Positions 3,455 through 54,139 of a DNA stretch of 64,000 nt are shown here, in pieces. Origin of the DNA: Patescibacteria group bacterium (lineage in GTDB: Bacteria > Patescibacteriota > Minisyncoccia > RBG-13-40-8-A); the NCBI GenBank assembly GCA_043807255.1, contig JAZDGD010000004.1, forward strand, positions 14,057 to 78,056, read 5' to 3'. Below the pieces are notes generated by a model. It saw only the letters and a program-made list of their open reading frames with translations, was not told the DNA's origin and ran no database searches. Numbering within the stretch: the stretch's first letter is position 1; every line of letters begins with the position of its first letter. The position numbers and the translations under genes are program-made.

Positions 3455-3468
3455 GTTCATAAAATTTT

Positions 3469-4062: not shown

Positions 4063-4063
4063 A

Positions 4064-32091: not shown

Positions 32092-32125
32092 GTAATGATT
32101 TTAGCATTTTTAAAAAAGAAATGAA

Positions 32126-32235
32126 AACACGAAAATTACCGAGGTCAGACCTCGGACATAATATAATATGTACGGAGAACAGTTCTCCGTACATCTATAT
32201 TGTCTCCATTTTCGTACGGCCGTGAAAAAAGGGAG
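32126..32235 (+). repeat. intergenic module R1 (CCGAGGTCAGACCTCGG hairpin, TACGGAGAACAGTTCTCCGTA hairpin and a GTACGGCCGTG hairpin); a 110-bp identical copy is at 32867-32976
   Basis: direct repeat read by eye. Confidence 0.85.
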
Positions 32236-32258
32236 ACACGGGAAAACAAAAAAAGTAC

Positions 32259-32804: not shown

Positions 32805-32866
32805 AAAGGAGGGCGTTTGCACGTGGGTCGGTAACCATCCCGGCCCTTTTTTATTTTTTTTACACA

Positions 32867-33030
32867 AACACGAAAATTACCGAGGTCAGACCTCGGACAT
32901 AATATAATATGTACGGAGAACAGTTCTCCGTACATCTATATTGTCTCCATTTTCGTACGGCCGTGAAAAAAGGGAAACACAAAAAACAACCCAAAAAAAC
33001 TTGACAGGATTTGTGGACGTGCTATAATGG
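32867..33030 (+). repeat. intergenic module R2 (copy of R1 plus the promoter block)
   Basis: 32867-32976 matches 32126-32235; 32940-33030 matches 33400-33490. Confidence 0.85.
33001..33029 (+). promoter_or_regulatory. consensus promoter TTGACA-17-TGCTATAAT
   Basis: ttgacaggatttgtggacgtgctataat. Confidence 0.6.
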
Positions 33031-36047: not shown

Positions 36048-36060
36048 TATTATAGTCGAA

Positions 36061-36212
36061 CCCCGCAGTAGCGGGGCAATGCTTGTCAAAAACCGCGCTA
36101 TTTATAGCGCGGTTTTTAGTTTACCCCGCCTTTTAGCGGGGTTTGCCCTAGGCAATGTGCCGAGGTCAGACCTCGGACATCTCAATCTTACGAGGTCGAA
36201 CCTCGTAAGATT
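36061..36212. repeat. cluster of five consecutive hairpins (two CCCCGC..GCGGGG, one ACCGCGCTAT..ATAGCGCGGT, one CCGAGGTCAGACCTCGG, one CTTACGAGGTCGAACCTCGTAAG)
   Basis: read directly; lies between the KH-protein gene and trmD. Confidence 0.8.
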
Positions 36213-36258: not shown

Positions 36259-36954
36259 ATGAAGTTCAACATAATCACAATCTTTCCAGATATATTTCAA
36301 AGCTATTTTAACGAGAGCATTATTAAGCGTGCGCAGGAAACCCTAGTCCGACCGGACGGGTCTAGGAAGAAATTGGTGAATATTAAAATTCATAATTTAA
36401 GAGATTATACGGACGATAAAAGAAATACCGTTGATGACCATCCTTACGGTGGTGGGCCGGGAATGGTAATGATGGTGGAACCAATATTTAAAGCAATTAA
36501 AAAGTTGTCCCGCGTAGCGGGATCCCGCTCTGCGGGAAAGAATACCAAGATTATTCTCTTTTCCACTCGTGGGAAAAAGTTTGACCAGGCGATGGCGAAA
36601 AGATTTTCAAAATTAGATAATTTAATTATGATTTGTGGACGATACGAAGGAGTCGACGAAAGAGTGGCAAAGTATATTGCTGATGAAGAAGTTTCAATCG
36701 GGGACTATGTTTTAACTGGCGGAGAAATTCCGGCAATGATTGTCGTGGACGCGGTGAGTCGCCTGATTCCTGGCGTTTTAGGAAAACACGAATCACTCGA
36801 AGAAATTAAAGGTAGTTATCCTGTTTACACCCGCCCGCACAAATTTTCTCCAAAGAGAAAATTCAAGCGGGTAAATCCCGAAACCTGGAGGGTCCCAGAA
36901 GTTTTGTTGTCCGGCGATCACAAAAAAATAAACGAGTGGAGAAAGGGAAAATAA
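36259..36954 (+). CDS. trmD: tRNA (guanine37-N1)-methyltransferase (the ORF-track start at 36079 spans the hairpin cluster; [13 protein letters not shown] at 36259 is the likely start)
   Basis: [10 protein letters not shown], ...[12 protein letters not shown]..., C-terminal HKKINEWR; contains two GC-rich in-frame hairpin segments (36331-36357 and 36511-36545). Confidence 0.85.
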
Positions 36955-40214: not shown

Positions 40215-40480
40215 GGATAGTACATAATCATTAATTAAATTTTTATGTAAAAGAGCGATAACAATAAGCGTACTTTAAAACAGAGTTTAGTTTTGGAACG
40301 TAGTTCAAAAATTGAGCTCTGTTTTTTAATCAGAAAAACATGTACACAATATTCTAATATGTTTTTATGTAATTTACAGTAGTTTGTGTGAGTTTGTTAG
40401 ATCAAATCGAATCTTTTATGGTTATCCTGATACAATCAGAAGTAGGCAGGCCGTTTCGGCCAATCTACTTCTGAATCTTT

Positions 40481-41940
40481 ATTGAGAGTTTGATCCTAGC
40501 TCAGGACGAACGCTGGCGGCGTGGATTAGGCATGCAAGTCGAATGGGTTTAGACCCATGGCGAACGAGTTAGTAAGACGTAGGTACATCCCTCTGACTCG
40601 GACATAACTTGCCGAAAGGCAAGATAATTTCCGATGGTCTCGAAAGAGTAAAGTCTTATCGCAAGATAAGATGGTGAGAGAGTGGCCTGCGCCCTATCAG
40701 CTAGTTGGTGAGGTAATGGCTCACCAAGGCTATGACGGGTAGGGGGCGTGAGAGCGTGTTCCCCAACGATGGCACTGAGATACGGGCCCTACTCCTACGG
40801 GAGGCTGCAGTCGAGAATCTTCCACAATGGACGAAAGTCTGATGGAGCGACGCCGCGTGAATGAAGAAGTCCTTCGGGATGTAAAGTTCTTTTCTAGAGG
40901 AGCAATTTTTGAGTGTACTCTAGGAATAAGGGGTTGCTAAACTCGTGCCAGCAGCAGCGGTAATACGAGTACCCCAAGCGTTGTCCGGAATTACTGGGCG
41001 TAAAGCGTCTGTAGGGTGTTTGATACGTCTTCTGTTAAATTTCGATGCTCAACATCGGAGCTGCAGGGGAAACGGTCAGACTAGAGAGTGTGAGAGGCTG
41101 ATGGAACTTAAGGAGTAGGGGTGAAATCCGTTGATACCTTAGGGAATACCAAAGGCGAAGGCATTTGGCTGGTGCATTTCTGACCCTGAGAGACGAAAGC
41201 GTGGGGAGCAAAAAGGATTAGATACCCTTGTAGTCCACGCCCTAAACTATGAATACTAGTTGTCTGAAGTATCGACCCTTCAGGTGACGAAGCTAACGCG
41301 TTAAGTATTCCGCCTGGGAAGTACGGTCGCAAGACTAAAACTCAAAGGAATAGACGGGAGCTTGCACAAGCGGTGGAGCGTCTGGTTTAATTCGACGGTA
41401 AGCGAAGAACCTTACCAGGGTTTGAAATTCTAGTGAAAACCTGATGAAAGTCGGGTCTTCTACAAGGACACTAGAACAGGTGCTGCATGGTTGTCGTCAG
41501 CTTGTGGCGTGAGTTGCTCCGTTAATTCGGGTAACAAGCGCAACCCCTGTCGTCTGTTATAAGTGTCAGACGAGACTGCCTCGTGATACGAGGAGGAAGG
41601 TAGGGATGACGCCAAATCAGCATGGCCCTTTGATACCCTGGGCAACACAGGCGCTACAATGGCCGAGACAATGGGTCGCCAAATCGTAAGATGGAGCCAA
41701 TCCCATCAAACTCGGTCCCAGTTCGGATTGGGGTCTGCAATTCGACCCCATGAAGTTGGAATCGCTAGTAATCGCAGATCAGCTACGCTGCGGTGAATAC
41801 GTTCTCAAGCTTTGTACTCACCGCCTGTCACACCAGAGAAGCCGGGAGTACCTGACGTGCCACGATTCGTGGTCCTAAGGTAAATTCGGTGACTAGGGTG
41901 AAGTCATAACAAGGCATCCGTAGGGGAACCTGTGGATGGA
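40481..41940 (+). rRNA. rrs: 16S rRNA (about 1460 nt); the gene ends ...GGGGAACCTGTGGATGGA and the canonical 3' tail GATCACCTCCTTA is not present
   Basis: AGAGTTTGATCCTAGCTCAG at the 5' end; universal blocks (GTGCCAGCAGCAGCGGTAATAC, GCATGGTTGTCGTCAGC, GTCATAACAAGG...); leader and trailer complementarity (TTATCCTG / CAGGATAA) brackets the mature gene. Confidence 0.9.
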
Positions 41941-42186
41941 CAATATTTTTACTTAGTTGATAAAATTTCTAGGTAAAGTCGATTATCTTGCATTGCAGGA
42001 TAAAGCAAAAAAGTTTTTTAATTGTTTGTACTAAACAAACAGTAAGTATCGGGAGAACCATAAAAGATTTGATAATAAAAAAACGAGATTTAATCTCGTT
42101 TTTTTATTATATGCTTGCGTTTATTATTATTTTAGCTGTATAATATAAATAGTATTTTGATAATAATTAATAGTGAATAAAATATT

Positions 42187-42372
42187 ATGGCGGATATAAT
42201 AACCGACAATCCTGTTGCTCAAATTGCTTATTGCGTTAAGTGTAGGGCAAAGCAAGAAATGAAAGACGCAAAAGAAGTTAGAATGAAAGGCAAGGGAGGT
42301 GAAAGGCGCGCCTTGAAAGGTGTTTGCCCAGTTTGTGGAACTGGAATGTTTAGAATTTTAGGTAAGGCATAA
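42187..42372 (+). CDS. small zinc-ribbon protein (61 aa, CxxC...CxxC)
   Basis: CVKCRAK...CPVCGTGM; lies in the 16S-tRNA spacer after the hairpin aaaaaaacgagatttaatctcgttttttt; no SD. Confidence 0.35.
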   Translation: MADIITDNPVAQIAYCVKCRAKQEMKDAKEVRMKGKGGERRALKGVCPVCGTGMFRILGKA

Positions 42373-42450
42373 TTTAGAATGAGGCCTATAACCCAATGAG
42401 ACAGAGTCTCATTTTGGGTTCGGCCCGACCCAAATTATTTTGGGTTTAGG

Positions 42451-42524
42451 GGGCGTATAGCTCAGTTGGCTAGAGCGCGTCACTGATAATGACGAGGTCC
42501 ATGGTTCGAGTCCATGTACGCCCA
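42451..42524 (+). tRNA. tRNA-Ile (anticodon GAU); CCA not encoded
   Basis: gggcgta...ctGATaa...ggttcgagtcc...tacgccca cloverleaf. Confidence 0.85.
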
Positions 42525-42532
42525 TTTTTATC

Positions 42533-42603
42533 GGGCCTGTAGCTTAGTGGTAGAGCTCCCGATTTGCATTCGGGGGACGGGAGTTCGATTCTCCCCAGGT
42601 CCA
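42533..42603 (+). tRNA. tRNA-Ala (anticodon UGC) with the G3:U70 identity pair; CCA not encoded
   Basis: gggcctg...ttTGCat...gagttcgattctc...caggtcca. Confidence 0.85.
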
Positions 42604-42626
42604 TTGTAATAATTAACAATAAAAAC

Positions 42627-42890
42627 ATGACACACGAATCAATAGAATTTTCAAAAGTTCCCGATTCTGAGAATGTTAGAAAATTTTTAGATCCATTTAA
42701 AATTGAAGAGGGTATGAAATCTGGCGCACTTAACGATGTAAAAATTAAACGATCTTCTGGAGAAATAGAAAGTGGGTGGGAAATTATTGATTTTGATTTT
42801 AAGTCTGGCGATGTTGTGGCGTGCAAAAAAGAAGGAGATGATTTGCTCCGCAAAAGAGTACAGCTACAAAATTTACGAGAGTGGAACTAA
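42627..42890 (+). CDS. hypothetical protein (88 aa); the ORF-track start at 42564 overlaps tRNA-Ala
   Basis: ATG 42627 lies downstream of the tRNA; no motif. Confidence 0.35.
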   Translation: MTHESIEFSKVPDSENVRKFLDPFKIEEGMKSGALNDVKIKRSSGEIESGWEIIDFDFKSGDVVACKKEGDDLLRKRVQLQNLREWN

Positions 42891-42936
42891 AATAGAATAT
42901 AAAAAAAGAGGCAAAGGCCTCTTTTTTTATGCTCAT

Positions 42937-43002
42937 AATCTTACGAGGTTTAACCTCGTAAGATTTCCTCTCCGATTTTATAAACATCTCCCGCGCTTTG
43001 GA
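42937..43002 (+). repeat. left 66-bp direct repeat, a degenerate duplicate of the murC 3' end plus the palindromic element (attL-like)
   Basis: aatcttacgaggtttaacctcgtaagatttcctctccgattttataaacatctcccgcgctttgga compared with 43926-43991 (about 8 mismatches); the reverse frame encodes QSAGDVYKIGEEILRG*, as does the murC C-terminus. Confidence 0.8.
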
Positions 43003-43003
43003 A

Positions 43004-43032
43004 AATATAAAAATCTGCATACGTTGACAGAT
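43004..43032 (+). promoter_or_regulatory. perfect consensus promoter TTGACA-17-TATAAT driving the inserted gene
   Basis: ttgacagattttttgtttaggcgtataat. Confidence 0.65.
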
Positions 43033-43196
43033 TTTTTGTTTAGGCGTATAATGTAATAAGATTAAATTGTTCTCTAAACAGATAAATAGATTCTACCTGC
43101 AAATATCCAATATGGCGAACCCACGCCTTTGGCGGGGCCACGCCGTATTGGTTCCGTGCCAGACATTTTTGTCTGAGCAAAGAGGAGGAACTGTCC

Positions 43197-43868
43197 ATGA
43201 AAAATCGTGGAACTGTCCGTCTCGCGACACCGGGTCAAATCAAGGATTTGATCTCGGCTCTGGCGCAGGCCATTCCCGCGAATCTGACCTTTACCCAGGC
43301 CAGTTACGGAATCGGCCACAAGAAAGAATTGGCGAAAAAAGTCGGAGAATTTTTCCGCAATTCTTTTATTGAAGCCGTGGAAGATGGGCGAGCGAGTCTT
43401 TTCCCGAGGTGGAAAACTATCGTCGTCGGCGCCTATCAGTCAACTGAAGTTTGGATTGAAGTTCTGTCTGGTGCCGGTTTCCGAATGGGCCTGGTAATCA
43501 GGGACCTCTTGAGTAAAACCAAGAAATTCCAAGACCGGTCCCTCGTAAGCTTTGCCAGGGCGACTGGAGCCGAACTGGGCTTTACGGAGTTGTTTGGGAC
43601 AACTGAACTTATCGCCCGAATCAGGGAGTTCGGTGGAGAACCCTGCAATTCAGATGATGCCCCGGCCCTACGCCAGGCTTATACCGAACAACCCGACGGA
43701 GAATGTCTTTATGTGGTTGTTGAGCCGATTTGCGGTTCGGACGGTCGTATCTGGATTTATGAATTGGTTAGCAGTATCGGCATGCTGTGTATTGACGGCA
43801 ACCATGCCGATCCTGGCATTTATTGGTCTCCCGACTATTCCTTCGTTTTTCGTATCTTCGGCAAGTAG
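43197..43868 (+). CDS. GC-rich (about 55%) hypothetical protein of 223 aa, the cargo of the cassette inserted at the murC 3' end
   Basis: strong SD aaagaggagga; compositional outlier (several overlapping open frames on both strands are typical of high GC); terminator gccccatacagattcgtctgtgtggggc plus T-run at 43876-43918. Confidence 0.6.
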   Translation: MKNRGTVRLATPGQIKDLISALAQAIPANLTFTQASYGIGHKKELAKKVGEFFRNSFIEAVEDGRASLFPRWKTIVVGAYQSTEVWIEVLSGAGFRMGLVIRDLLSKTKKFQDRSLVSFARATGAELGFTELFGTTELIARIREFGGEPCNSDDAPALRQAYTEQPDGECLYVVVEPICGSDGRIWIYELVSSIGMLCIDGNHADPGIYWSPDYSFVFRIFGK

Positions 43869-43925
43869 AATTTTTCGCCCCATACAGATTCGTCTGTGTG
43901 GGGCATCTTTATTTTTTTCATCATA

Positions 43926-43991
43926 AATCTTACGAGGTTTAGCCTCGTAAGATTTCTTCTCCGATTTTGTAAACATCTCCAGCGCCTTGGA
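43926..43991 (+). repeat. right 66-bp direct repeat (the functional murC 3' end; attR-like)
   Basis: see the left repeat. Confidence 0.8.
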
Positions 43992-45240
43992 GGAGGATGA
44001 TGTCGTCTTTTTTCGCCTTGAGTTCTAAATATTTTTTGATGTCATCGAAAGTACTTATATATTGAATGTTTTTTACTTGTCCGCCGAGGAGGCGGATTTT
44101 CTCAACCAGATCTTTGGCGTGAATTGTGTGATCGTCTTTTTCTCGCGAACCATAAATATCGGTGACAATCACTTCGTCTGCTAAATCAAAAGCGGTTGCA
44201 AAATCATTTAATAAAAGCTTTGTGCGCGAATATAGGTGTGGTTGGAAAATAACAAATAATTTATTATTTGGATATTGTTCTTTCGTTGCCTTTATGGTTG
44301 CTTTAATTTCTGTGGGATGATGACCATAATCATTATAAATTAGAGCACCTTTTTTGGTGTTTCCCATAAAATCAAATCTGCGCCAGGTACCAGTATAATC
44401 TTTCAGAATTTTTAAGGCAGTTTTTTCTTCAAGTCCAATTAATTTAGCCGCGCTTAGCGCGGCTTGCGCATTTTTAAAATTGTGTTCGCCGGGAACTGAC
44501 AATTTAATATTTGCGGTTTCTTGTAAATAATTGATTTTTTTGATCTTTGTATTAGAATTTTTTAAAACATCTAAAATGTTTTGATCGTCGCCATTGTAGA
44601 TAATATATCCGTCTTCAGGAACTTTTTCTACCATTTTTTTGAACGCAGTTTTTACATTTTCAATGGTGCCATAATAATCTAAATGATCATTATCAATATT
44701 TAAAATAATTAAAATATTGGGAGTTAAGTTTAAAAACGATTCTTTGTATTCGCAAGCTTCAACAATAAAATATTTACTACTTCCTAAAACAAAATTATCT
44801 TCTTGTTTTTGTAAAAGACCGCCAACAACAACTGTGGGGTCTAAATTTCCATAAATCATTAATTCGGCAATCATGCAGGTGGTGGTTGTTTTGCCGTGAG
44901 TTCCGGAAACCGCAATTGTAAACATATTTTTAGAAATCATTCCTAAAATTTCTGGATATGAATATGTGGGAATGTTTAATTCTTTAGCGTAAATCATCTC
45001 CGGATTGTCTTCGGTTATAGCGGGGGAGTAAACAACCATATCTGCGTCCTGTGGTAAATTTTCGCGTTTATGGCCAATAAAAATTTTGCCGTGGATGGTT
45101 TGAATTCTTTCGGCCATTTTATTCATCGAAACATCGGAGCCAGTAACTTTTATTCCTTTAAGTCGTGCCATTCTGGCAATCGCCGAAACTCCCACGCCCC
45201 CAACTCCAATAAAATGTATTTTTTTAACATGATCTAGCAT
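43939..45240 (-). CDS. murC: UDP-N-acetylmuramate--L-alanine ligase
   Basis: IHFIGVGGVGVSAIA Rossmann N-terminus; GTHGKTTTT P-loop; Mur ligase middle and C-terminal domains. Confidence 0.9.
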   Translation of the reverse strand: MLDHVKKIHFIGVGGVGVSAIARMARLKGIKVTGSDVSMNKMAERIQTIHGKIFIGHKRENLPQDADMVVYSPAITEDNPEMIYAKELNIPTYSYPEILGMISKNMFTIAVSGTHGKTTTTCMIAELMIYGNLDPTVVVGGLLQKQEDNFVLGSSKYFIVEACEYKESFLNLTPNILIILNIDNDHLDYYGTIENVKTAFKKMVEKVPEDGYIIYNGDDQNILDVLKNSNTKIKKINYLQETANIKLSVPGEHNFKNAQAALSAAKLIGLEEKTALKILKDYTGTWRRFDFMGNTKKGALIYNDYGHHPTEIKATIKATKEQYPNNKLFVIFQPHLYSRTKLLLNDFATAFDLADEVIVTDIYGSREKDDHTIHAKDLVEKIRLLGGQVKNIQYISTFDDIKKYLELKAKKDDIILLQGAGDVYKIGEEILRG

Positions 45241-45351
45241 GTTTAAATCTTATCATTTTAAATTAATAAAACAAAATTATTGACAACAATACAATTACTT
45301 GTTATCTTGTAACCAGAACCTTTAAGGTTACTTTTTGTAAGGAGGATGATT

Positions 45352-45585
45352 GTGAAATACAATTCACTAAAGGCAACGAGGGCGGTGACTGGGGTAGAAC
45401 TCGATTTTATTGGGCATGCTCAGGGCCTTCTTCCGATTTTACAGCAAGAGCTTGTTGAAATCAACGAACAAATTAAAAAATTAGGGAGAAGAGCAGGGAT
45501 CAAAAGACTTCTTCGAAGTCTTGCCATTGATGAACTAATCAAGGATCTCAAGGGGGCCATTAAACGGCACGGAGGGAAGGTCTGA
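45352..45585 (+). CDS. small hypothetical protein (about 77 aa), GC-elevated, strong SD, GTG start
   Basis: gtaaggaggatgattGTG; promoter TTGACA-17-TATCTT at 45289-45317; terminator ggacgggggccaaccctcgtccg plus T-run. Confidence 0.4.
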   Translation: MKYNSLKATRAVTGVELDFIGHAQGLLPILQQELVEINEQIKKLGRRAGIKRLLRSLAIDELIKDLKGAIKRHGGKV

Positions 45586-45685
45586 CGTGGAATACGAAAC
45601 GGACGGGGGCCAACCCTCGTCCGTATTTTTTTATTCTAAAATTGACTTGTTTCTCTTTTTGTACGGCCGCGTAAAAAGAGAAATA

Positions 45686-47023
45686 CTATTTCTTTACGTA
45701 TTTTACGAATTGATCACTGCGGTCGTATTCATTTTTGAAAACACCAAACGATGCTGCGCCGGGAGACAATAAAATAATGTCTCCTTTTTTTGTAAATTTT
45801 CTCGCTTCTTTAATCGCTAATTGCATTGAGTCAACGACAATATATTCGGGAAAATCTTTAGGCAAAACGCTTAAAATCTTATCAGTCGCTGTGCCTTTTA
45901 TGAATACAACATTTTTAGTTGTGTTTGTTGTGACTTCTAACATGTCGTTGAAGTTTAATTCTTTATTTGCCCCTCCACAAATTAAAACAATATTTTTCTT
46001 GTTTTTATATAAAGAATTTAGTGCGGCAATACAGGCGTCAGGAGTTGTGGCATTAGAATCGTTATAATAAGTAATTCCGTTCTTCTTTAAAATCATTTGT
46101 AATCGTCCAGGTTCGCCAGGATAGGTAGCAATTGCTTGTTTGATTTGTTTTTGATTTAATTTCATTAATTTTAAAACTTCAACAGCTAAGGCAATGTTTG
46201 TCTTGTTGTGTTCGCCAATTAATTTTGTTTTGAAATTTCTAATTGTATCTTCATTAACAACAATAATCTTGGGATTTATCCCGCCTTGGCGGGACCTCTT
46301 TTTTATTTGCACCATCGCTTGTTCACTGATAATTAAAAAATCATTTTCTGTTTGGTATTTAAAAATTTCCGCCTTGTCATCAAAATATCTTTGCATATCA
46401 TTTTTATAATAATTCATATGATCATTCATAAAGGTTGTGAAAACAGCAATGTGTGGACTGATTTTTGATTCACCAAAACCTTGTAATTGCCAAGAGTCGA
46501 GCTCCAAGACAACGACATCGTTATCCTTAACTTTTTCCAGCAAAGGAAGCGTGGCAAGTCCACGAATATTTCCACCCAAAAATACATTTCCTTTTTTATA
46601 ATATTTTTTTAAACCATGATAAATCATTTTTGTGACCGTTGATTTTCCGCGCGTGCCAGTGATGCCAATAATTTTAGCTTTAGTAAATTTGGTAAACAGA
46701 GAAGCATCCATTTCAATGGGAATGCTGTTTTTTCTTGCTTCTGCCAGATAAATAGAATCAAAGGGAACTCCTGCGGCTTTAATCAATGTGTCGGCCTGTT
46801 GAAAATCTTCAATGCGATGCTGGCCTAAAATATATTTTATGTTTTTAAATTTTTTGAGTTGTTTTAGAGAAGAAGCAAGTTGTTGTTCGGTTTTTAAATC
46901 AGTAATTAAAAGATTGGCATCGTGTTTGGCCAAAAATTTCGCAACATTAATTCCTCGGCCAAGTAGCCCAAGTCCCATGATGATGATTTTTTTGTTTTTG
47001 AAATATTCTTTGTAATTAAGCAT
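45686..47023 (-). CDS. murD: UDP-N-acetylmuramoylalanine--D-glutamate ligase; the start is probably ATG 47023 (MLNYKEYF...), because the MENLLQG prefix in the ORF track lies in the shared leader repeat
   Basis: IIIMGLGLLGRG, GITGTRGKSTVT P-loop, Mur ligase domains. Confidence 0.85.
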   Translation of the reverse strand: MLNYKEYFKNKKIIIMGLGLLGRGINVAKFLAKHDANLLITDLKTEQQLASSLKQLKKFKNIKYILGQHRIEDFQQADTLIKAAGVPFDSIYLAEARKNSIPIEMDASLFTKFTKAKIIGITGTRGKSTVTKMIYHGLKKYYKKGNVFLGGNIRGLATLPLLEKVKDNDVVVLELDSWQLQGFGESKISPHIAVFTTFMNDHMNYYKNDMQRYFDDKAEIFKYQTENDFLIISEQAMVQIKKRSRQGGINPKIIVVNEDTIRNFKTKLIGEHNKTNIALAVEVLKLMKLNQKQIKQAIATYPGEPGRLQMILKKNGITYYNDSNATTPDACIAALNSLYKNKKNIVLICGGANKELNFNDMLEVTTNTTKNVVFIKGTATDKILSVLPKDFPEYIVVDSMQLAIKEARKFTKKGDIILLSPGAASFGVFKNEYDRSDQFVKYVKK

Positions 47024-47096
47024 ACCCTGTAGTAGATTTTCCACTTATTTTTATTTTACTGCTCCGCAGTAGTGGAAAATTCACTACGGGGCATAT
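47021..47096 (-). repeat. leader element copy 2 (see 128-203)
   Basis: the reverse complement matches the lysS leader over about 76 bp. Confidence 0.85.
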
Positions 47097-47220
47097 TTAA
47101 TTCTATCATTATAATATTTTTTAGACAAAATCCCGATGTAGGGTCGGGATAAAAAAAAGAGGGGAGACGCAACAACGATTGTTCGTTGTTTTGTCTCCCC
47201 ACGCTCCGGCCGTTCGTTAT

Positions 47221-47469
47221 CTACTTGGCCAGTTGTTCGATGGCTTTGACGATATTGAGTCCGATACTAAAGATAAGCGTGATGATGGCCAGAAAAGAGC
47301 TAAAAAGTTGCCTGGAAAGATGCCCTTCGTTCCTGTTTTCCGCTGCGCCAATTACCACCAAAATAAAACTGATGACGACAGCCACGAGCATACTAGTAAA
47401 CATTTTATCCTCCAACGTACGAGATAGTGGGTCGATTCGCATCAACACCACGCTAACATATGTAATCAT
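47221..47469 (-). CDS. small membrane protein (82 aa), GC-elevated, apparently leaderless
   Basis: two TM helices; the minus-strand promoter TTGACA-16-TATGAT ends 5 nt before the ATG; terminator ggggagac...gtctcccc plus T-run at 47170-47215; overlapping plus-strand ORFs are judged artefacts. Confidence 0.4.
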   Translation of the reverse strand: MITYVSVVLMRIDPLSRTLEDKMFTSMLVAVVISFILVVIGAAENRNEGHLSRQLFSSFLAIITLIFSIGLNIVKAIEQLAK

Positions 47470-47512
47470 AGCATATACACAAAATTTGTCAAGTTTTTTC
47501 GGGTAAAATAAA

Positions 47513-47550
47513 AATACTGTAAATTGAACGATCGTTCAAAATACAGTATT
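47513..47550. promoter_or_regulatory. 38-bp near-perfect palindrome aatactgtaaattgaacgatcgttcaaaatacagtatt (operator-like); a related copy is at 56545-56580
   Basis: ATACTGTA-N6-ACGATCGT-N6-TACAGTAT architecture at both loci, each next to a strong promoter. Confidence 0.5.
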
Positions 47551-47601
47551 TTAGAAATTATTAATTTTATTCAATGTTTTTATTTTACAAAAAAATTAAT
47601 A

Positions 47602-48534
47602 ATGTATAGTATAAATTATATGTTAAAAGTGTTTTTGGATGCGTTGATTGATAGCGCGAAAATGATTCCGTTGCTTTTTGTGATTTATGTTGCGATTGAA
47701 TTGATTGAATATAAATTTGGAAACAAAATCAGAGAAAAAATGCAGAGCGCAGGAAAATCCGGTCCAGCGATTGGTTCAATTGTTGGTAGTTTTCCGCAGT
47801 GCGGTTTTTCAGTTATTGCTACTGCGCTATATAACCAGAGATTGGTTACAATTGGAACGTTGTTAGCGGTTTATCTCTCAACATCTGACGAAGCAATTCC
47901 TGTGATTTTGTCGCAACCAGAAAAAGCGAAAATGATTTTGCCATTAATTTTAATAAAAATTGTGATCGCTTTAATTGCCGGATATTTTGTTGATTTTATT
48001 TTTAAAAAAAACAAAAACAATGTTTTAACCCATATTGAAAACTATAAACACGGAACAGACGACAAAACCCATCACCATGAATCAGTAATTGAAGAAAAAT
48101 CTTGTTGTGGACATATGCCCAATTCTGTTTCTAAAAAATTTAATCCCAAAGAAATATTTTTTCATCCCTTAATCCATACATTAAAAATTTTCCTTTTTAT
48201 ATTTTGTGCTTCACTTTTAATCGGCATTTTTATTTTTTTGATAGGTGAAGAAACATTTTATAAATTCTTTTCGAATCAAAAATTTTTACAGCCATTTTTA
48301 GCAGCGATAATCGGATTAATTCCTAATTGTGCATCGTCAGTTTTGATTGCACAACTATATTTAAAAGACGTGATTACTTTCGGCTCAATGATTGCTGGGC
48401 TCTGTGCGGGTGGGGGATTGGGAATATTAATTTTATTTAAGGAAGAAAAAAACAAAAGAAATGCATTTAAAGTTTTGGCGTTGCTTTTGGGCATCAGTAT
48501 TTTTGTTGGTTTGACAATTCAATATGTGCTATAA
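47602..48534 (+). CDS. polytopic membrane protein with a central His/Cys-rich loop (HGTDDKTHHHESVIEEKSCCGH), possibly a metal transporter
   Basis: hydrophobic helices in two halves separated by the His-rich loop. Confidence 0.45.
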   Translation: MYSINYMLKVFLDALIDSAKMIPLLFVIYVAIELIEYKFGNKIREKMQSAGKSGPAIGSIVGSFPQCGFSVIATALYNQRLVTIGTLLAVYLSTSDEAIPVILSQPEKAKMILPLILIKIVIALIAGYFVDFIFKKNKNNVLTHIENYKHGTDDKTHHHESVIEEKSCCGHMPNSVSKKFNPKEIFFHPLIHTLKIFLFIFCASLLIGIFIFLIGEETFYKFFSNQKFLQPFLAAIIGLIPNCASSVLIAQLYLKDVITFGSMIAGLCAGGGLGILILFKEEKNKRNAFKVLALLLGISIFVGLTIQYVL

Positions 48535-48582
48535 TTTGTTTTGGAGGGGCTAATTAAATAATTTTATCCGCCTTGGGCGGAA

Positions 48583-49266
48583 ATGTTCAAAAAAAATATG
48601 ATCGAAATTTTATTGAGTTCGTTGAAAGAGGTTTGGGGGAGTTTTATTGGATTTCTTCCAACCCTTATCGCGGCGTTGATTGTTTTTATTGTTGGTTGGT
48701 TAATTGCCATTTTCGTTGGCAAATTAATCAATAAATTAGTAAAAGCAATAAAGTTAGATTCGCTTTTAGAAAAAATTGGTTTTGGAAAGGCATTGTCAAA
48801 AACAAAAATTAAATTAGATTCAGCCAAGTTTTTTGAAGAACTTGTAAAATGGTTTTTGATTATTGTGTTTTTGATGACCGCAGTTGATATTTTAGGACTT
48901 GAAGAATTAAGGTTCTTTTTGGGGAAAATTCTTGCTTTTATTCCCGTGGTAATAATTTCTGCGGTTGTTTTGTTGGTGACGGTTCTTATTGCAAGATTTA
49001 TGCACAAGATTATTAAGGCAAGCGCTGATGCCGCAGGATTGCATTCGTCTTCAGTAATTGCAGGAATTGCAAGATGGGCAATTTTGATTTTTGGTTTCGT
49101 GATTGCTTTAACGCAGTTAAGAATTACTACGAAGTTAATTGAAACAATTGTTTCTTGGATCATTATAATGTTGGCAATTGCCGGTGGATTGGCATTCGGT
49201 TTGGGTGGCAAGAATATGGCAGAAAAAACTCTTGAAAAACTGAAAGACGATTTAACGGAAAAATAA
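48583..49266 (+). CDS. TM-helix-repeat / MscS-related small membrane protein
   Basis: repeated amphipathic TM segments; the minus-strand ORF 48564-49211 is judged an artefact. Confidence 0.4.
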   Translation: MFKKNMIEILLSSLKEVWGSFIGFLPTLIAALIVFIVGWLIAIFVGKLINKLVKAIKLDSLLEKIGFGKALSKTKIKLDSAKFFEELVKWFLIIVFLMTAVDILGLEELRFFLGKILAFIPVVIISAVVLLVTVLIARFMHKIIKASADAAGLHSSSVIAGIARWAILIFGFVIALTQLRITTKLIETIVSWIIIMLAIAGGLAFGLGGKNMAEKTLEKLKDDLTEK

Positions 49267-49450
49267 CCCTTCGACCTGCCTGCCGGTAGGCAGGTAAAAA
49301 TTCAGGGTAAATAAAAATTCGGAGGTGGAACCTCCGAATATGGAGTAGATATCAAGGGGCCAGAAACATCCGTTTCTGGCCCCTTTGATTGGTCGCAAAG
49401 ACAGAGATACCCGAGGTCAGACCTCGGGTATTTTCTATTATCGGAAACGA

Positions 49451-49479
49451 TTGACACGACTATTTTACGAGAATATAAT
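49451..49479 (+). promoter_or_regulatory. perfect consensus promoter TTGACA-17-TATAAT
   Basis: ttgacacgactattttacgagaatataat; the ATG lies 8 nt downstream (leaderless). Confidence 0.55.
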
Positions 49480-49487
49480 TTGTCTAT

Positions 49488-49658
49488 ATGCGAGAAACAA
49501 AATGCGATTTATGCAAAAAGAAAATTTCTGAAGAACCGATAATCGCTGGTTTGGGATTTTTTCCAAAAGCCGAATTGTGCGAAAAGTGTGGTGCACCAAT
49601 TTTGAATTTTTTAAAGAAACATAAATTCATAAAAACCGAAAAGAAAAAGAAAAGATAA
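49488..49658 (+). CDS. small zinc-ribbon-like protein (56 aa; CDLC...CEKC), leaderless
   Basis: MRETKCDLCKK...ELCEKCGAPI; not in the ORF track because it is under 60 aa. Confidence 0.35.
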   Translation: MRETKCDLCKKKISEEPIIAGLGFFPKAELCEKCGAPILNFLKKHKFIKTEKKKKR

Positions 49659-49891
49659 CATAAAATAAATTAAAGGGCTTGACCCCTCACATGAAAACAA
49701 TATACTCAACCACTTGACACGCTATTTTTTTTCGCATAAACTAACAACATATAAGAACTATGAGAAAAAACCAAAAACAACTTATGAAAACAAGCGGTTG
49801 ATAAAACCTGGTATTTTCATACCTCGTATTACTCAGACCGCCAAAAGCGGTTTTTTTAAATCATAGAATCGGAAGACCTTAACAACCCCTA

Positions 49892-49987
49892 AATCTCGCA
49901 AGGCGAGATCGGGAGCCCGACCGAAAGGTGTAGGGCTCCCCAAGTATCGCAAAGCGAGATCGGGAGCCCGACCGAAAGGTGTAGGGC
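49892..49987 (+). repeat. tandem direct repeat (2 x about 45 bp) in the 23S leader, each unit with two hairpins
   Basis: atctcgcaaggcgagatcgggagcccgaccgaaaggtgtagggct appears twice. Confidence 0.8.
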
Positions 49988-50636
49988 TGAATATGTTTCG
50001 ACATCAAGTAAAAAAAACAATAAAAGAAAAAGCATTTTTTATCGAGTAAAAAAGGTTAAAAATAAAAGCAATTAAAGTCTAAGTAGTAATGTCTATAAAT
50101 TGCCAGCTAAATTAAGCAGGTTAGTAAGGGTATATGGTGGATGCCTTGACACTAGAAGGCGAAGAAGGACGTGGCGTAACTGCGATAAGTCTCGGGGAGG
50201 TGTGTAGCAACCTATGATCCGGGAATCTCCGAATGAGGAAACTCAATTCCAATAAACTGGAATTATCCCGATTGAAATCGGGAAGCGAACTCGGCGAAGT
50301 AAAACATTTCAGTAGCCGAAGGAATAGAAAACAAAAGTAATTCCCCAAGTAGTGGCGAGCGAAAAGGGAACAGCCCAAACCCGATCCTAGAACCGCTTTG
50401 CGGTTCGGATTTAGGGGGTAGTAAGATAATAACGTCGAGAGAAATCTCGGGAAAGTGGATACAAAACTAAGACTTCCTTAGTTGAAGGAACTGGAAAGTT
50501 CTACCAAAGAAGGTAATAGTCCTGTAAACGAAAAGCCTATTATACTACTATTATTGAATATTGAGTACCGCGATAACATATAATCTAGCGGGAATCATCC
50601 TGAACTATCTAGGAAAGGCTAAATACTTCTAGTGAT

Positions 50637-50675
<39 letters not shown>

Positions 50676-52732
50676 GCCCGATAAGGGCGTTGAAATAGTA
50701 CCTGAAATCATATACTTACAAAGAGTCGGAGTCCGACCCGCAAGGGGTTAGGATGACGGCGTGCTTTTTGCAGAACGAACCAACGAGTTTACCGCAGACT
50801 GTTGTCTAAGTCCGTATAGGACGGAGGCATAGGGAAACCGAGTGTTAATAGCGCGAAATTATAACAGTATGCGTAAGACCCGAAGCCAGGTGAGCTACCC
50901 ATGGCCAGGATGAACTCTGATGAAAATCAGAGGGAGGTCCGGACCCACCAGCCGTGCAATACTGGGGGATGAGTTGTGGGTTGGAGTGAAAAGCTAATCG
51001 AACCTGGTAATAGCTGGTTCTCCTCGAAATATGTTTAGGCATAGCCTCTTGTTTTTTCTCCTTAGGGGTAGAGCACTAAATTGGTTGAGGTGGCGCAAGC
51101 CTACTCACTAAATTAAACTCCGAATACTAAGGCAGATAGCAAGGGAGTAAGACTGTGGGGGCTAAGCTCCATGGTCAAAAGGGAAATAGCCCAGATCGTC
51201 GTCTAAGGTCCCAAAACTAAATTAAGTGGTAAAAGAAGTGTTTCGTCTTTGACAGATGGGATGTTGGCTTAGAAGTAGCCATCATTTAAAGAGTGTGTAA
51301 CAACTCACCATTCTATTCTCGATTTATCGAGAGCTATGACAAGACGCGCTGAAAATGTAACGGGGCTCAAATTTAGTACCGAAGACACGGATTTTCAAAT
51401 TAATTTTTGAAAGTGGTAGAGGAGCATTTTTTCAACAGTGAAGCTAATTCGTGAGAGTTGGTGGAGTTGAAAGAAGAGAGAATGTTGGTATGAGTAACCG
51501 CAAGTCCGATGAGAAATCGGACCATCGAAAGCCCGAGGTTTCCTTGGCAATGTAAATCAGCCAAGGGTTAGGCGGATCTAAGGCAATCCCGAAAGGGGTA
51601 GCTGATGTTCAATCGGTTAATATTCCGATCCTTCTGTATTTTTCTATGGAGTGACGGAGTTTAGTAGTTAGAGCAGATTATTGGATTTCTGTTTATATAT
51701 TAAGAAGCCAGATTAGGCAAATCCGGTCTGGAATACTTCAAGATACGTATAAAGGTTCAACTTCGGTTGGATTTATTCTAATGAGCAAGCTTCCAAGAAA
51801 AACTTCTATGGTTAGAAATATAGAATCCGTACTTAAACTGACACAGGTGGGCGAGGCGAGGAGCCTAAGATGAACGGGTTAACCTTCGTTAAGGAACTCG
51901 GCAAAACAACGGCCGTAAGTTCGCAATAAGGCCTTCCCCGACCCGCAAGGGATTAGGGGACGCAGCTAAAGATTCCTAGCGACTGTTTACTAAAAACACA
52001 GGTCCCTGCTAACTCGTAAGAGGATGTATAGGGGCTGACACTTGACCAGTGCTGGAAGGTTAATAGTGGGGGTGTATGTCTCGCTTTGCGAGATGTATGC
52101 TCACTGCTTGAAGCCCCAGTGAACGTCGGCGATAACTATAATCGTCCTAAGGTACCGAAATTCCTTGGCATGTAAGTTATGTCCTGCAGGAAAAGTGTAA
52201 CGACTGGGAAACTGTCTCAACGAAGAGCCCGGTGAAAATGCAATGTCAGTGAAGATGCTGACTACCCGCGACAAGACGAAAAGACCCCAGGAGCTTTACT
52301 ATATCTTGGTATTGTTTTAATGATTTTAATGCGTAGCGTAGACGGTAGGATTTGAAGGTTGCCTCTCGGGGCGACTGGATCCGACAATGAAACACCGTTC
52401 TTTGAAATTGTTAAAACTAACCCCTTCTATATGAAGAGGAACAGTGCCAGGTGGGTAGTTTTGGTGGGGCGCTAGCCTCCTAAAGAGTAACGGAGGCGTT
52501 TAAAGGTTGACTAGCTCCGGATGGAAATCGGAGCGATAGTGTAAGAGCAAAAGTCAGCTTTACTGCAAGACTGACAGGTCGCGCAGTTACGAAAGTAGAA
52601 TCTAGTGAACCGACCCTGGTTAATAGAATCGGGGGAGATCATCGGATAAAAGCTACCCTGGGGATAACAGGCTGGTAGACGCTAAGAGTCCATATCGACG
52701 CGTCTGTTCGGCACCTCGATGTCGGCTCATCT

Positions 52733-52763
<31 letters not shown>

Positions 52764-52784
52764 TGGCTGTTCGCCAATTAAAGA

Positions 52785-52824
<40 letters not shown>

Positions 52825-52872
52825 ACTCCTATCTGTCGTGGGCGTAGATACTTGAGAGACTTTGTCCCTAGT

Positions 52873-53637
52873 AAGAATATTGCTACTGTCCGAAGTAATT
52901 CGGACTGACAATGTGGCTTATAACGGTGAAGTCTTAATGATGTTTGGTCTGTTGATAACTATTATTGCATCGGTCCGATGATAATGGTACAATTTAATTG
53001 AGGACCAGATAATTATTAAGATAATACCGTGGGAAGTCGATCTAAAATTAATTACGCATATATTGCAGGATTTCTTGATGGTGATGGAAGTTTAATGTTT
53101 CAAATTAAAAAACGGAAAGATGGTAAGTCTAAAACAAGATTTATGCTGACAATCTGTTTTTATCAAGATTCGAGACACGCTAAGCCATTGTTCTGGATTC
53201 AAAAGGTTCTGAAAATAGGTTATATTTCAAAACGTAAAGATGGAATTACAGAATTAAGAATAAATGGTTATAAGCAAGTCAAAAATATTTTGAAAAATTT
53301 AATTCCATTCATCAAATTCAAGAAAATTCAAGCAAAAGCAATGTATGACGCCACAAATCTTTTATGTGCTGTGAAAAATATAAATTTGTCTAAAAGCAAT
53401 TTATATAAGTTAATTAATTATATTTTGACAATTCAAAATAATAATTATGCGACTAAACACAAAAAAACTAAAAAAGATTTGTTGAAAATTTTAGGTTTGA
53501 CCCCGTAACGACTTGGTTTGACTTCGGTCAGCCAGAGTTTAACAGCAATGTTAAGCTAACATGCCACCACCCTAATTCCGATATTATTGGAATGGGTGAA
53601 GATATAGTCTGCGCACATAGTGATATGTGATAACGTG
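52873..53637 (+). mobile_element. self-splicing (probably group I) intron in 23S carrying a homing-endonuclease ORF; the insertion lies within the sarcin-ricin loop sequence context
   Basis: exon 1 ends in U, the intron ends in G; flanking exon sequence reconstitutes CCUAGUACGAGAGGACC. Confidence 0.65.
53029..53508 (+). CDS. LAGLIDADG homing endonuclease (single-motif, homodimer type)
   Basis: YIAGFLDGDGSLMFQIKK motif; located inside the 23S intron. Confidence 0.8.
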   Translation: MGSRSKINYAYIAGFLDGDGSLMFQIKKRKDGKSKTRFMLTICFYQDSRHAKPLFWIQKVLKIGYISKRKDGITELRINGYKQVKNILKNLIPFIKFKKIQAKAMYDATNLLCAVKNINLSKSNLYKLINYILTIQNNNYATKHKKTKKDLLKILGLTP

Positions 53638-53949
53638 ACGAGAGGACCGGGATGAACAAACCTCTGGTGTACCAGCTGTCCTGCCAAGGGCACTGCTGGG
53701 TAGCTAAGTTTGGCAGGGATAAACGCTGAAAGCATATAAGCGTGAAACCCTTCTCGAGATTAGGTATCATAGATTGGTTGAAGATTACGACCTTGATAGG
53801 CTTCAGGTGTAAGTACCGAGAGGTATTGAGCCGAGAAGTACTAATAAATCATTTGCCTGTTTAATTAGGCTGGCAATTTGTGGACGTTATTTAGATTTAT
53901 TTATTTTAGTTGATATCGAAAAATTGTGATTCAAAATTATAACCATTAT

Positions 53950-54056
53950 AAGGGAGCTATACCTGGAGTGCTCCACCTGTTCCCATTCCGAACACAGAAG
54001 TGAAATCTTTCAGGGCCGATGATAGCGGATTACCGCAAAAGTAGGTGACCCTCCTA
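53950..54056 (+). rRNA. rrf: 5S rRNA
   Basis: CCACCTGTTCCCATTCCGAACACAGAAGT...GCCGATGATAGCGG; terminator gctccgcaactgcgggg plus T-run at 54081-54117. Confidence 0.8.
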
Positions 54057-54139
54057 TAATAATCACAATTAGCAAATAAGATGAAAGCTCCGCAACTGCG
54101 GGGTTTTTGTTTTTTTAAAAATTTGTTATACTATAATCA

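Follow-up and report, generated by a model that had tools for sequence, protein, structure and literature searches.

The gene unit lying beside the 3' end of murC in this Patescibacteria genome is probably an orphan copy, without RT or TR, of a lectin-fold family of CPR DGR targets, and it would have arrived by a recombination event that duplicated its target site. This reading comes from an analysis of a window of 64,000 nucleotides, the whole stretch of DNA considered here, together with related loci from other genomes. What appeared to be an alien orphan gene thus becomes an identifiable stand-alone member of the main DGR-target family of the CPR, and a further member of an already known kind of DGR target.

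As the original prediction stated, the unit is a compact, self-contained expression cassette in which promoter, leader, Shine-Dalgarno sequence, ORF and hairpin terminator are all present. The 923 nt between the two flanking repeats are wholly occupied by this one promoter-leader-ORF-terminator unit; the other ORFs listed between the repeats all overlap the 223-aa gene, which alone has family support. The features of the locus are:

42899-42930, no strand assigned: bidirectional terminator-like hairpin, its 14-bp stem set between A- and T-runs; it ends an 87-aa ORF (42627-42890) and closely precedes the left repeat
42937-43002, no strand assigned: left repeat copy, consisting of the palindrome (42937-42965) and the last 16 murC codons plus stop, here displaced and without function
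43024-43052, plus strand: sigma-70-type promoter TTGACA-17-TATAAT, 12/12 matches
43053-43196, plus strand: 5' leader of about 140 nt (144 nt from the -10 hexamer to the ATG)
43107-43151, plus strand: long irregular hairpin of the leader, CCAATATGGCG...CGCCGTATTGG
43157-43179, plus strand: second leader hairpin, directly before the Shine-Dalgarno sequence
43183-43188, plus strand: Shine-Dalgarno sequence AGGAGG, 8 nt 5' of the ATG
43197-43868, plus strand: 223-aa ORF; in the model, residues 1-62 form an N-terminal helical region and residues ~67-220 a C-type-lectin-fold domain
43734-43865, plus strand: segment equivalent to the VR by comparison with DGR-linked homologues, the last 132 coding nt
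43877-43904, plus strand: intrinsic terminator, a GC-rich hairpin with a 12-bp stem and a 4-nt TTCG loop, followed by a T-run
43926-43991, no strand assigned: right repeat copy, consisting of the palindrome (43926-43954), with the murC stop in its loop, and the functional last 16 murC codons
43939-45240, minus strand: murC, 433 aa, with Mur ligase N, M and C domains

The promoter had been recognised correctly down to its perfect match, but had been placed at 43004-43032, and the leader, given as about 160 nt, measures 144 nt; the strong AGGAGG element stands as described. The leader folds with a minimum free energy of -52.4 kcal/mol (z = -4.87), and none of 200 shuffled sequences was equally stable. 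Rfam 15 gave no match to leader and cassette at the gathering score, and by E-value threshold only sub-threshold matches at chance level; since no Rfam family matched, a riboswitch reading of the leader was dropped. A covariance model of the family leader hairpin (R1), built from 20 homologous leaders and comprising 22 pairs, 15 of them with compensatory changes, scores 34-87 bits in 34 related loci. Against the cassette leader (43067-43152) it yields a non-significant 8.4 bits (E 2.8), and an analogous long hairpin is found at the same place. Among 77 family copies the promoter matches the consensus at 10/12 positions or better in 80%, and family leaders fold with a mean z of -3.5. A strong sigma-70 promoter, a long structured leader and a Shine-Dalgarno sequence are therefore traits common to the whole family, and the same promoter type also stands at native genes of this genome (family D8), so that these signals do not mark an imported, trimmed-down unit as had been proposed. 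The protein would be made from its own monocistronic transcript.

A word-indexed homology search with the single protein as query retrieved only itself and a full phmmer scan was required. Run against 1.84 billion representatives, it placed at least 1,288 clusters in the family at E<=1e-3, of which 205 reached E<=1e-10. The conserved core of the family reads W72...G78...LGF...CPAEVGPQLRL.Y.DQP.GE...M...F218. No match to the 223-aa protein was obtained with Pfam, NCBIfam, PHROGs or PADLOC, a sequence-profile search of the PDB gave chance-level matches only, and Pfam was equally negative for 41 homologues, which leaves the family without a Pfam model. AlphaFold2 (AF2) from the single sequence reached a pLDDT of 37, which is unusable, and a homologue alignment was needed; with 117 homologues the pLDDT rose to 85.6 overall and to more than 90 across residues 70-220. 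The C-terminal domain models as a C-type-lectin fold: the top Foldseek matches of the model are CTLDs, albeit weak ones (best E 0.05), and a fold search of BFVD returned nothing. The family, centred on CPR/Patescibacteria, is predicted to consist of proteins of ~200 aa in which a short helical region at the N-terminus is followed by a C-terminal ligand-binding domain of C-type-lectin fold. CPR DGR targets typically carry no recognisable transmembrane or other conserved domain (Roux et al., PMC8144416). The protein may act as a binding module whose specificity would reside in the C-terminal ~44 residues.

The cargo had been described as a protein without recognisable motif, a view superseded by the size of the family, its lectin-fold model and the members that are demonstrable DGR variable proteins. 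As for the functions suggested at the time, toxin and immunity roles find no support; a ligand-binding or host-interaction factor comes nearest. The closest homologue (L090, protein P0002, 51% identity) is likewise an orphan cassette: its promoter is TTGACT-17-TATAAT, and DGR genes are absent within 5 kb. Two further homologues (L089, P0003, and L092, P0004, each 39% identical) show the cassette layout of the window on contigs too short to exclude a nearby DGR; in L089 the nucleotides near the Shine-Dalgarno sequence and start codon are near-identical to those of the window cassette. The family is nearly absent from mobile DNA, with no matches among phages, two weak ones among plasmids and one weak one in IMG/VR, and carriage by a phage or plasmid was rejected on these counts.

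Base composition had been taken as evidence of a foreign origin. The ORF is indeed GC-rich, but the 55% against 35% first given overstates the case: its GC content is 0.507 compared with 0.361 for the window, and only 200-nt windows peak at 0.55. At third codon positions the value is 0.54, against 0.25-0.31 in 16 neighbouring genes. Across 68 family copies the GC excess over the flanks amounts to +0.10 to +0.16 and is limited to the ORF; in 47 of 48 loci the family gene is richer in GC than the sequence around it, and RT and Avd lie 5 points below their flanks. The ORF-confined excess is thus a family-wide trait in which the adjacent Avd and RT genes have no part, and a regression over the family predicts 0.517 for a host of 36% GC, close to the 0.507 observed. 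Because the excess is family-wide, the GC-richness of the cassette is no evidence of recent transfer, and the earlier use of composition as a sign of foreign origin falls with it.

In a DGR, the VR is rewritten from the TR by adenine-specific mutagenic reverse transcription. This arrangement can be read directly in several relatives of the cassette: TR-paired 3' VRs are seen in five homologues (L002, L024, L036, L070 and L080). In L002 the VR (5467-5598) and TR (5948-6079) differ exclusively at TR adenines and are adjoined by bAvd and RVT_1 genes; L024 has a single TR for two family genes, with mismatches at TR adenines in 23/23 and 29/30 cases; and L070 possesses VR and TR with no RT within 5 kb. 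In the linked layout the VR forms the last ~130 nt of the gene, directly followed by TR, Avd and RT. Counting full-length copies with at least 2 kb of downstream sequence, 16 of ~43 have Avd ~490 nt and RT ~870-930 nt downstream, another 3 or 4 have an RT nearby in a different arrangement, and ~24 have none. The gene is therefore a bona fide DGR target, with 3' VR, adenine-only TR mismatches, Avd and RT, in about 40% of well-sampled loci, and roughly half of the sampled family copies stand without a nearby DGR.

The copy beside murC belongs to the latter group. No repeat of its VR-equivalent segment occurs anywhere in the 64-kb window, and tblastn, run with two RTs of CPR DGRs and two Avds as queries, found nothing below E 0.2 there; the cassette is an orphan, with TR, RT and Avd absent from the window. 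The VR-equivalent segment is depleted in adenine (0.174 compared with 0.244 in the remainder of the gene); the last 132 nt have 0.139 in linked copies and 0.166 in orphans. The terminator hairpin starts 8 nt past the stop codon, the place where DGR targets have a GC-rich inverted repeat (PMC5758913). The C-terminus, FVFRIFGK followed by the stop, differs from the WVF..PR motif that ends the VR in linked members. The binding surface may be frozen in this genome, or a DGR located outside the window may diversify it in trans.

Two direct repeats bracket the cassette. The 66-nt copies, correctly described at the outset as containing a palindrome and the last 16 murC codons, are identical at 61 of 66 positions, and in a gapped alignment weaker similarity runs further left into T-tracts, to about 42916 and 43902. 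Read in frame with murC, the right copy gives LQGAGDVYKIGEEILRG and stop, which confirms it as the real C-terminus of the Mur ligase (433 aa); the left copy gives FQSAGDVYKIGEEILRG and stop, with QSAGDVYKIGEEILRG and stop as its minus-strand reading. The palindrome supplies the last four murC codons and the stop (ILRG and stop), and in the two closest available genomes (L005 and L006) murC ends in ...GAGDVYKIGEEIVKK and stop, without a palindrome. Four of the five differences between the copies are synonymous and one changes Gly to Ser at a conserved residue, a 4:1 ratio that involves few sites and fits either a decaying in-situ duplicate or a diverged donor/recipient allele. With L005 and L006 as reference, the left copy shows the derived state at three of the four coding differences. 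A reading of the 66-nt pair as VR and TR of a DGR was rejected, the pair lying outside the ORF and its five mismatches not being adenine-specific.

The palindrome, CTTACGAGG-N5-CCTCGTAAG, has a 9-5-9 arrangement extendable to 14-1-14 and occurs at four loci in the 64 kb, giving eight strand-matches where none are expected. Its copies away from murC are:

4745-4801, no strand assigned: a full copy (4778-4800) and a degenerate copy just upstream (about 4745-4770), both in frame within the ORF of a PMT-family membrane protein
36187-36209, no strand assigned: a copy among five clustered GC-rich hairpins that lie upstream of trmD

The palindrome was not found in the fetched loci of L005 and L006. 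It is a multi-copy, genome-wide REP-like element in a genome that holds 14 perfect short GC-rich palindromes against ~0.15 expected; readings as an integron attC or a dif-like site were rejected for sequence mismatch and for its multi-copy distribution within ORFs. A repeat that is merely a genome-wide element unrelated to murC thus describes the palindrome but not the remaining 37 nt adjoining it, which are murC-specific; only the 23-29-nt palindrome recurs elsewhere. Two other units of this genome also lie between direct repeats, one pair of 115 nt (32125/32866, 99% identity) and one of 45 nt (10755/11544, 84%), neither of them a gene end. Around family copies, flanking repeats measure 66 nt in the window, 69 nt in L011, 73 nt in L035 and 126 nt in L080. 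At equal flank lengths, repeats of at least 60 nt accompany 3/57 family copies and 0/220 control genes (Fisher p = 0.008; ~0.04 after removal of the ascertainment case).

The murC-murD neighbourhood was compared among genomes, as proposed earlier. The cassette is absent from both L005 (MurC 83% identical) and L006 (78%), which retain the order 16S-tRNA-[slot]-murC-murD-23S, but other genes fill the slot: L005 has an SBP_bac_3/Lig_chan gene and L006 a convergent gene, SDR-like by inspection, so that neither is an exact empty site. The slot 3' of murC is occupied differently in each relative, and the gene may be old here and lost or replaced elsewhere. These comparisons support an insertion into the variable slot that separates tRNA-Ala from murC, which the gene would have entered by recombination duplicating the target. 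Recombination of the homology-anchored or Campbell type may have followed DNA uptake; alternatively, replication may have switched template at the hairpin. Nothing indicates that the cassette integrated through an integrase of its own. As first noted, the insert contains no mobility gene; in a Pfam scan of the 45 other ORFs of at least 120 aa in the window, the 25 families listed of 77 matched are all housekeeping, with no integrase or recombinase among them. Site-specific integration, the mechanism originally put forward, is one of several routes to such a duplication; an att-type recombinase was seen neither in the insert nor among the families listed, and the genome-wide palindrome makes up half of the repeat.

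Other origins can be weighed against the same observations. A larger island bearing an integrase of the tyrosine or serine type could have integrated at the 3' end of murC, with the last 16 codons and the palindrome as att, and later been deleted internally to a single gene. Repeats that contain and restore the 3' end of the target gene would suit such a remnant, as would the relatives without cassette and the synonymous nature of four of the five repeat differences, expected if both copies were once functional gene ends. We nevertheless consider it quite improbable: the 923-nt unit matches the layout of repeat-less family members elsewhere and so bears no scar of a larger element, an integrase is seen neither in the insert nor among the 25 of 77 window Pfam families listed, the family is nearly absent from phages, plasmids and IMG/VR contigs, and this genome has two more units between direct repeats that are not gene ends. 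Similarly small is the chance that the gene is a long-resident native and its 66-nt repeat no acquisition footprint, having arisen as a by-product of local rearrangement at the palindrome, either through replication that slipped or switched template or through unequal recombination of intergenic modules that carry hairpins. The wealth of short palindromes, the other repeat-bracketed units and a GC content that agrees with the family regression for this host speak for such a history; L005 and L006, however, both lack gene and palindrome at the site, and the 37 nt of murC coding sequence upstream of the cassette promoter are hard to obtain without an insertion between the copies. A chimeric join in the MAG that placed foreign GC-rich DNA between collapsed repeats is very unlikely indeed. 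The locus comes from a single MAG contig, the protein is seen on one contig only and the composition changes sharply; yet the repeat copies differ at five positions and are therefore not a collapsed repeat, the same combination of GC island, promoter and leader is found again in over 60 independently assembled AT-rich CPR genomes, and the promoter is of the host's own type (D8).

The preferred reading of an orphan family copy that entered by target-duplicating recombination is compatible with, and would be refined by, a further proposal: that the gene is an active remote target, diversified in trans by a TR that lies outside the window and matches 43734-43865, with the post-stop hairpin as its recognition inverted repeat. 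Non-adjacent and remote DGR targets are documented (PMC5758913), the single TR serving two genes in L024 and the VR and TR kept in L070 with no RT within 5 kb offer precedents within the family, and the A-depleted 3' end with its GC-rich hairpin 8 nt past the stop would suit such a target. Against it stand the absence of a TR from the 64 kb, the orphan state of L090 together with the lack of any DGR on the short contigs of L089 and L092, the departure of the C-terminus from WVF..PR, and the hairpin itself, which is equally explicable as a plain terminator; we regard active diversification of this copy as unlikely. Rather improbable, too, is a broader idea in which the family genes are autonomous target cassettes, each made up of a GC-rich CLec ORF with promoter, structured leader and terminator. 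Needing no recombinase of their own, they would spread within a CPR genome and from one to another through recombination associated with hairpins, leaving ~65-125 nt of the target duplicated; the flanking repeats of the window copy, L011, L035 and L080 speak for this idea. If it were true, the ORF-confined GC excess and the leader hairpin absent from Rfam would reflect a family-specific process, possibly an RNA handle or cDNA-mediated conversion tied to DGR biology.

For the annotation of AT-rich CPR genomes, the locus illustrates that an abrupt rise in GC together with a perfect promoter marks this family and not recent horizontal transfer. Several family features may be of interest for work on DGRs and the CPR: about half of the copies occur without a nearby DGR, GC enrichment is restricted to the ORF, the 5' leader has a covarying hairpin absent from Rfam, and some cassettes are bracketed by target duplications of ~70 nt.

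The cassette shares features with several known systems. Integrative elements that insert at gene 3' ends with duplication of att resemble it in repeats that include the 3' end, in the regenerated gene and in an insert absent from relatives; it differs from them as a single 923-nt unit with no integrase seen, half of its repeat spread genome-wide and its family nearly absent from phages and plasmids. Integron cassettes and Xer-dependent pdif/IMEX modules likewise are one-gene modules of ~1 kb with palindrome-containing repeat borders and no recombinase of their own. In contrast to integron cassettes, the unit beside murC has its own 12/12 promoter, a palindrome without a GTTRRRY core and no IntI in sight, and unlike dif/Xer sites the palindrome has no 11-6-11 layout and occurs in frame inside ORFs. 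Closer to CTTACGAGG-N5-CCTCGTAAG are REP and Rickettsia-palindromic-element-like repeats, which are also multi-copy, GC-rich in an AT-rich genome and found both between genes and in frame within coding sequence, here including the last murC codons; the palindrome is much shorter than RPEs, and unlike REP it has no RAYT or transposase identified with it. With the CLec targets of DGRs (Bordetella phage Mtd, Treponema TvpA, the CPR 'clade 2' of PMC8144416 and the 'UVR' classes of Wu et al. 2018, PMC5758913) the protein has no sequence similarity to the Mtd, TvpA or FGE-type CLec domains (Pfam negative), and this copy differs in having no TR, Avd or RT within 64 kb. What it shares with them is the modelled CLec-fold C-terminal domain and, as in other CPR targets, a small size without signal peptide, transmembrane segment or Pfam domain, while its homologues share the ~130-nt 3' VR, the cognate TR, adenine-only mismatches, bAvd and a DGR-type RT.

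The gene carried by the cassette at the murC 3' end is an orphan member of a family of C-type-lectin-fold proteins that are DGR targets in CPR bacteria. Curated libraries gave no match to the 223-aa protein, and a word-indexed search returned the protein itself alone, from a Patescibacteria MAG. The original prediction had described this cargo as free of recognisable motifs; a phmmer search of 1.84 billion representatives recovered 1,288 relatives at E<=1e-3 (205 at E<=1e-10), with similarity confined to residues ~67-220. The family core is strongly conserved and reads ...W.TI..G...LGF...CPAEVGPQLRLQY.DQP.GEW..IAMEPI...G...F...FVF. A Pfam search of the family found no model, and Foldseek gave weak matches (E 0.05), with CTLDs at the top.

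The anatomy given in the original prediction is borne out. The cassette lies between two direct repeats, with the following elements in window positions.

Elements of the cassette and its flanking repeats
42937-43002 and 43926-43991: 66-nt direct repeat, copies identical at 61/66 positions
43024-43052: promoter TTGACA-17-TATAAT, a 12/12 match, between the repeats
144 nt between the repeats: leader
43183-43188: AGGAGG, between the repeats
43197-43868: 223-aa ORF, between the repeats
43877-43904: GC-rich hairpin with a 12-bp stem and a T-run, between the repeats

The textbook promoter is real, and its original placement was 20 nt too far left. Each repeat copy contains first the palindrome AATCTTACGAGG-N5-CCTCGTAAGATT and then minus-strand murC coding sequence; a weaker, gapped similarity extends ~20 nt further left, where two terminators have their T-tracts. 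The true C-terminal end of a 433-aa Mur ligase with N, M and C domains is encoded by the right copy, which reads LQGAGDVYKIGEEILRG*, while the left copy reads FQSAGDVYKIGEEILRG* in the murC frame. A 10-nt direct repeat, GGAACTGTCC, brackets the start codon both in the window (43186-43195 and 43209-43218) and at L089 (244-253 and 267-276), the locus of a homologue. Across this repeat, the SD and the first ~25 codons the two loci share ~85% nucleotide identity, and the proteins overall are 39% identical; the repeat may be an operator or translational control site.

The view of a compact unit that sits inside a target duplication, lacks a mobility gene and is missing from relatives holds. The murC-murD neighbourhood was compared in two relatives found with MurC: L005, a chromosome of 626 kb (83% identity), and L006 (78%). 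The minus strand of L005 carries 16S, two tRNAs, one gene, murC, murD and, further on, 23S, which is the window's unusual order, and its tRNAs correspond to tRNA-Ile and tRNA-Ala of the window. The slot from the tRNAs to murC is taken in L005 by an SBP_bac_3/ligand-gated-channel gene and in L006 by a different, convergent gene that is SDR-like by inspection; neither has an exact empty site. The cassette thus occupies a variable slot and is missing from the nearest genomes. In both relatives murC ends in ...GAGDVYKIGEEI(V/I)... without the palindrome, which therefore supplies the last codons of the window's murC, ILRG*. Protein genes spanning ~7.5 kb interrupt the surrounding rRNA operon (window 40478-54057; L005:1-10399). 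Its order in the window is 16S, tRNA-Ile, tRNA-Ala, an 87-aa ORF, the cassette, murC, murD, an ArsP_2-like permease, an MscS-like protein, 23S, a LAGLIDADG endonuclease ORF (53029-53508) and 5S, and it recurs in L005 except for the content of the slot.

The link to DGRs is evident in L002, a locus of a Patescibacteria genome, where bAvd, on the opposite strand, and an RVT_1 gene follow the homologue P0169. The last 132 nt of the P0169 gene (5467-5598) recur at 5948-6079, and the downstream copy has adenine at every mismatch, the signature of a DGR variable region (VR) and template repeat (TR). The survey took in 80 metagenomic loci and 6 others with family members, and linkage was counted for full-length copies followed by at least 2 kb of sequence. 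Avd lies ~490 nt and RT ~870-930 nt downstream in 16 of these; in three or four others an RT is nearby in a different arrangement, and ~24 have no DGR genes within 5 kb. At L024 a single TR is common to two family genes, which flank Avd and RT (VR/TR segments 2715-2842, 3230-3357 and 5516-5647), with mismatches at TR adenines in 23/23 and 29/30 cases. L070 has a VR/TR pair (2029-2159 and 2465-2595; 29/29 mismatches adenine-specific), and neither RT nor Avd lies in the 5 kb downstream. This linkage agrees with the literature, in which CPR DGRs form their own clade with targets that lack recognisable domains (PMC8144416). [quoted passage not shown] The L002 contig also carries a second, unrelated DGR (1642-4068) with VR 2122-2257, TR 2585-2720, bAvd, RT and a 205-aa target without similarity to the family; the two DGRs are 3 kb apart, with tpiA in between and pgk after the second RT.

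Within the 64-kb window the cassette is an orphan. CPR DGR RTs and Avds used as tblastn queries gave no match there, and no second copy of the ORF 3' end was found either. Its closest homologue, P0002 (L090, 51% identity), is likewise a stand-alone cassette, with parB on one side, topA on the other, a TTGACT-17-TATAAT promoter and no DGR genes within 5 kb. The same layout is seen at L089 (P0003, 39%; TTGACA-17-TATAAT) and L092 (P0004, 39%), on contigs too short to exclude a nearby DGR; at the SD and first ~25 codons, L089 and the window are nearly identical in nucleotides. In many members, pyrimidine-rich (C/T)CTTGG / CCCTTTG repeats occupy the 3' UTR from stop codon to terminator (L001:4440-4500, L090:5470-5540, L092:1910-1970, L011:1260-1320, L035:1020-1090, L003:4215-4800); the 3' UTR of the window copy has none.

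Composition checks confirmed that the ORF is GC-rich (50.7%, GC3 0.54, against 36.1% for the window and GC3 of 0.25-0.31 in 16 other genes). This excess is shared by the family. Across 68 copies in the comparison loci L001-L092, from hosts of 30-58% GC, it amounts to +0.10 to +0.16 over the locus background and does not extend beyond the ORF's ~700 nt, dropping to zero on both sides. In 47 of 48 loci the family gene is richer in GC than its flanks, and the neighbouring Avd and RT genes, ~0.5-1 kb off, lie on average 5 points below the flanks. Gene GC follows host GC (r = 0.53, slope 0.53), and the regression predicts 0.517 for a 36.1% GC host, where 0.507 is observed. The last 132 nt are depleted in adenine, with 0.139 in DGR-linked copies, 0.166 in orphans and 0.174 in the window, against ~0.25 in the rest of the gene. 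Similarly, within 300 nt upstream a sigma-70 match reaches at least 10/12 in 80% of 77 copies and at least 11/12 in 57%. The leaders typically measure 50-230 nt and have strong structure (mean z -3.5; window -4.87), and the AAAACTTGACA-N17-TGCTATAAT promoter type also occurs at native genes of the window genome. The GC island, like the strong promoter and the leader, is a family trait, and the composition argument for a recent foreign origin therefore fails. The original prediction was partly right; it went wrong on the identity of the cargo and in taking GC and promoter as recent-foreign marks.

Alignment of homologue leaders revealed a conserved long hairpin, ...ACTTGC...GGCAGTCATAGCC-AAAAG-[variable stem-loop]-TTTCT-GGCTATGACTGCC, for which RNAalifold predicted 22 pairs, 15 with compensatory double changes. 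A covariance model located it in 34 loci (34-87 bits; 12 of them not in the building set), each time directly before the family gene and nowhere else, with DGR-linked and orphan copies alike (L001:3673-3760, L020:4718-4805, L082:3126-3214 and 31 further loci). Rfam 15 holds no family for it. The window leader has an analogous hairpin after ACCTGC, at a non-significant 8.4 bits (E 2.8).

Nothing suggests a resident integrase. A single unit of the family-typical kind takes up all 923 nt between the repeats, and searches of phages, plasmids and IMG/VR found the family essentially missing there. The two repeat copies differ at five positions. In the murC frame four of these differences are synonymous, and the fifth replaces the conserved Gly of QGAGD by Ser; judged against L005 and L006, the left copy is derived at three of the four coding differences. 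This suits a displaced resident end, now decaying, and a diverged donor allele alike. Bracketing repeats also occur at other family copies.

Repeats bracketing family copies at other loci
L011: 69 nt, 93%, left half of a REP-like palindrome
L035: 73 nt, 93%
L080: 126 nt, 78%, palindromic MITE-like element
L077: 89 nt, 74%

Repeats of at least 60 nt at equal flank lengths were found at 3/57 family copies versus 0/220 control genes (p = 0.008; ~0.04 without the ascertainment case). The window contains two other bracketed units, a 115-nt repeat (99%; 32125-32239 / 32866-32980) around two small ORFs (90 aa, membrane-like, and 62 aa) and a 45-nt terminator-like repeat (84%; 10755-10799 / 11544-11588) around an AAA_33 ORF adjoining tRNA-Gln. 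These observations together favour recombination tied to hairpin-bearing sequences. The murC end could have been duplicated by homology-anchored or Campbell-type recombination following DNA uptake or, alternatively, by template switching at the hairpin; confidence in each single mechanism is low. The GC-island ORFs, the conserved leader hairpin and the occasional ~70-nt target duplications make the family worth following up.

The repeat might itself have been a genome-wide element unrelated to murC, which would have told against the original prediction. This is only half the case: its palindrome is genome-wide and occurs at four loci in 64 kb (0 expected), and the other 37 nt are murC-specific. 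A full copy with a degenerate neighbour lies in frame within a PMT-family ORF (4745-4801), and a further copy belongs to a hairpin cluster upstream of trmD (36060-36210); none was found in the fetched loci of L005 and L006. GC-rich perfect palindromes form a larger population in the window genome (14 versus ~0.15 expected), with short examples at 4745-4801, 36060-36210, 36340-36366, 10549, 10802, 26496, 32168, 32909, 49317 and 49407. Some are in frame within ORFs, for example that of the PMT-family membrane protein and possibly trmD, a pattern reminiscent of the Rickettsia palindromic elements.
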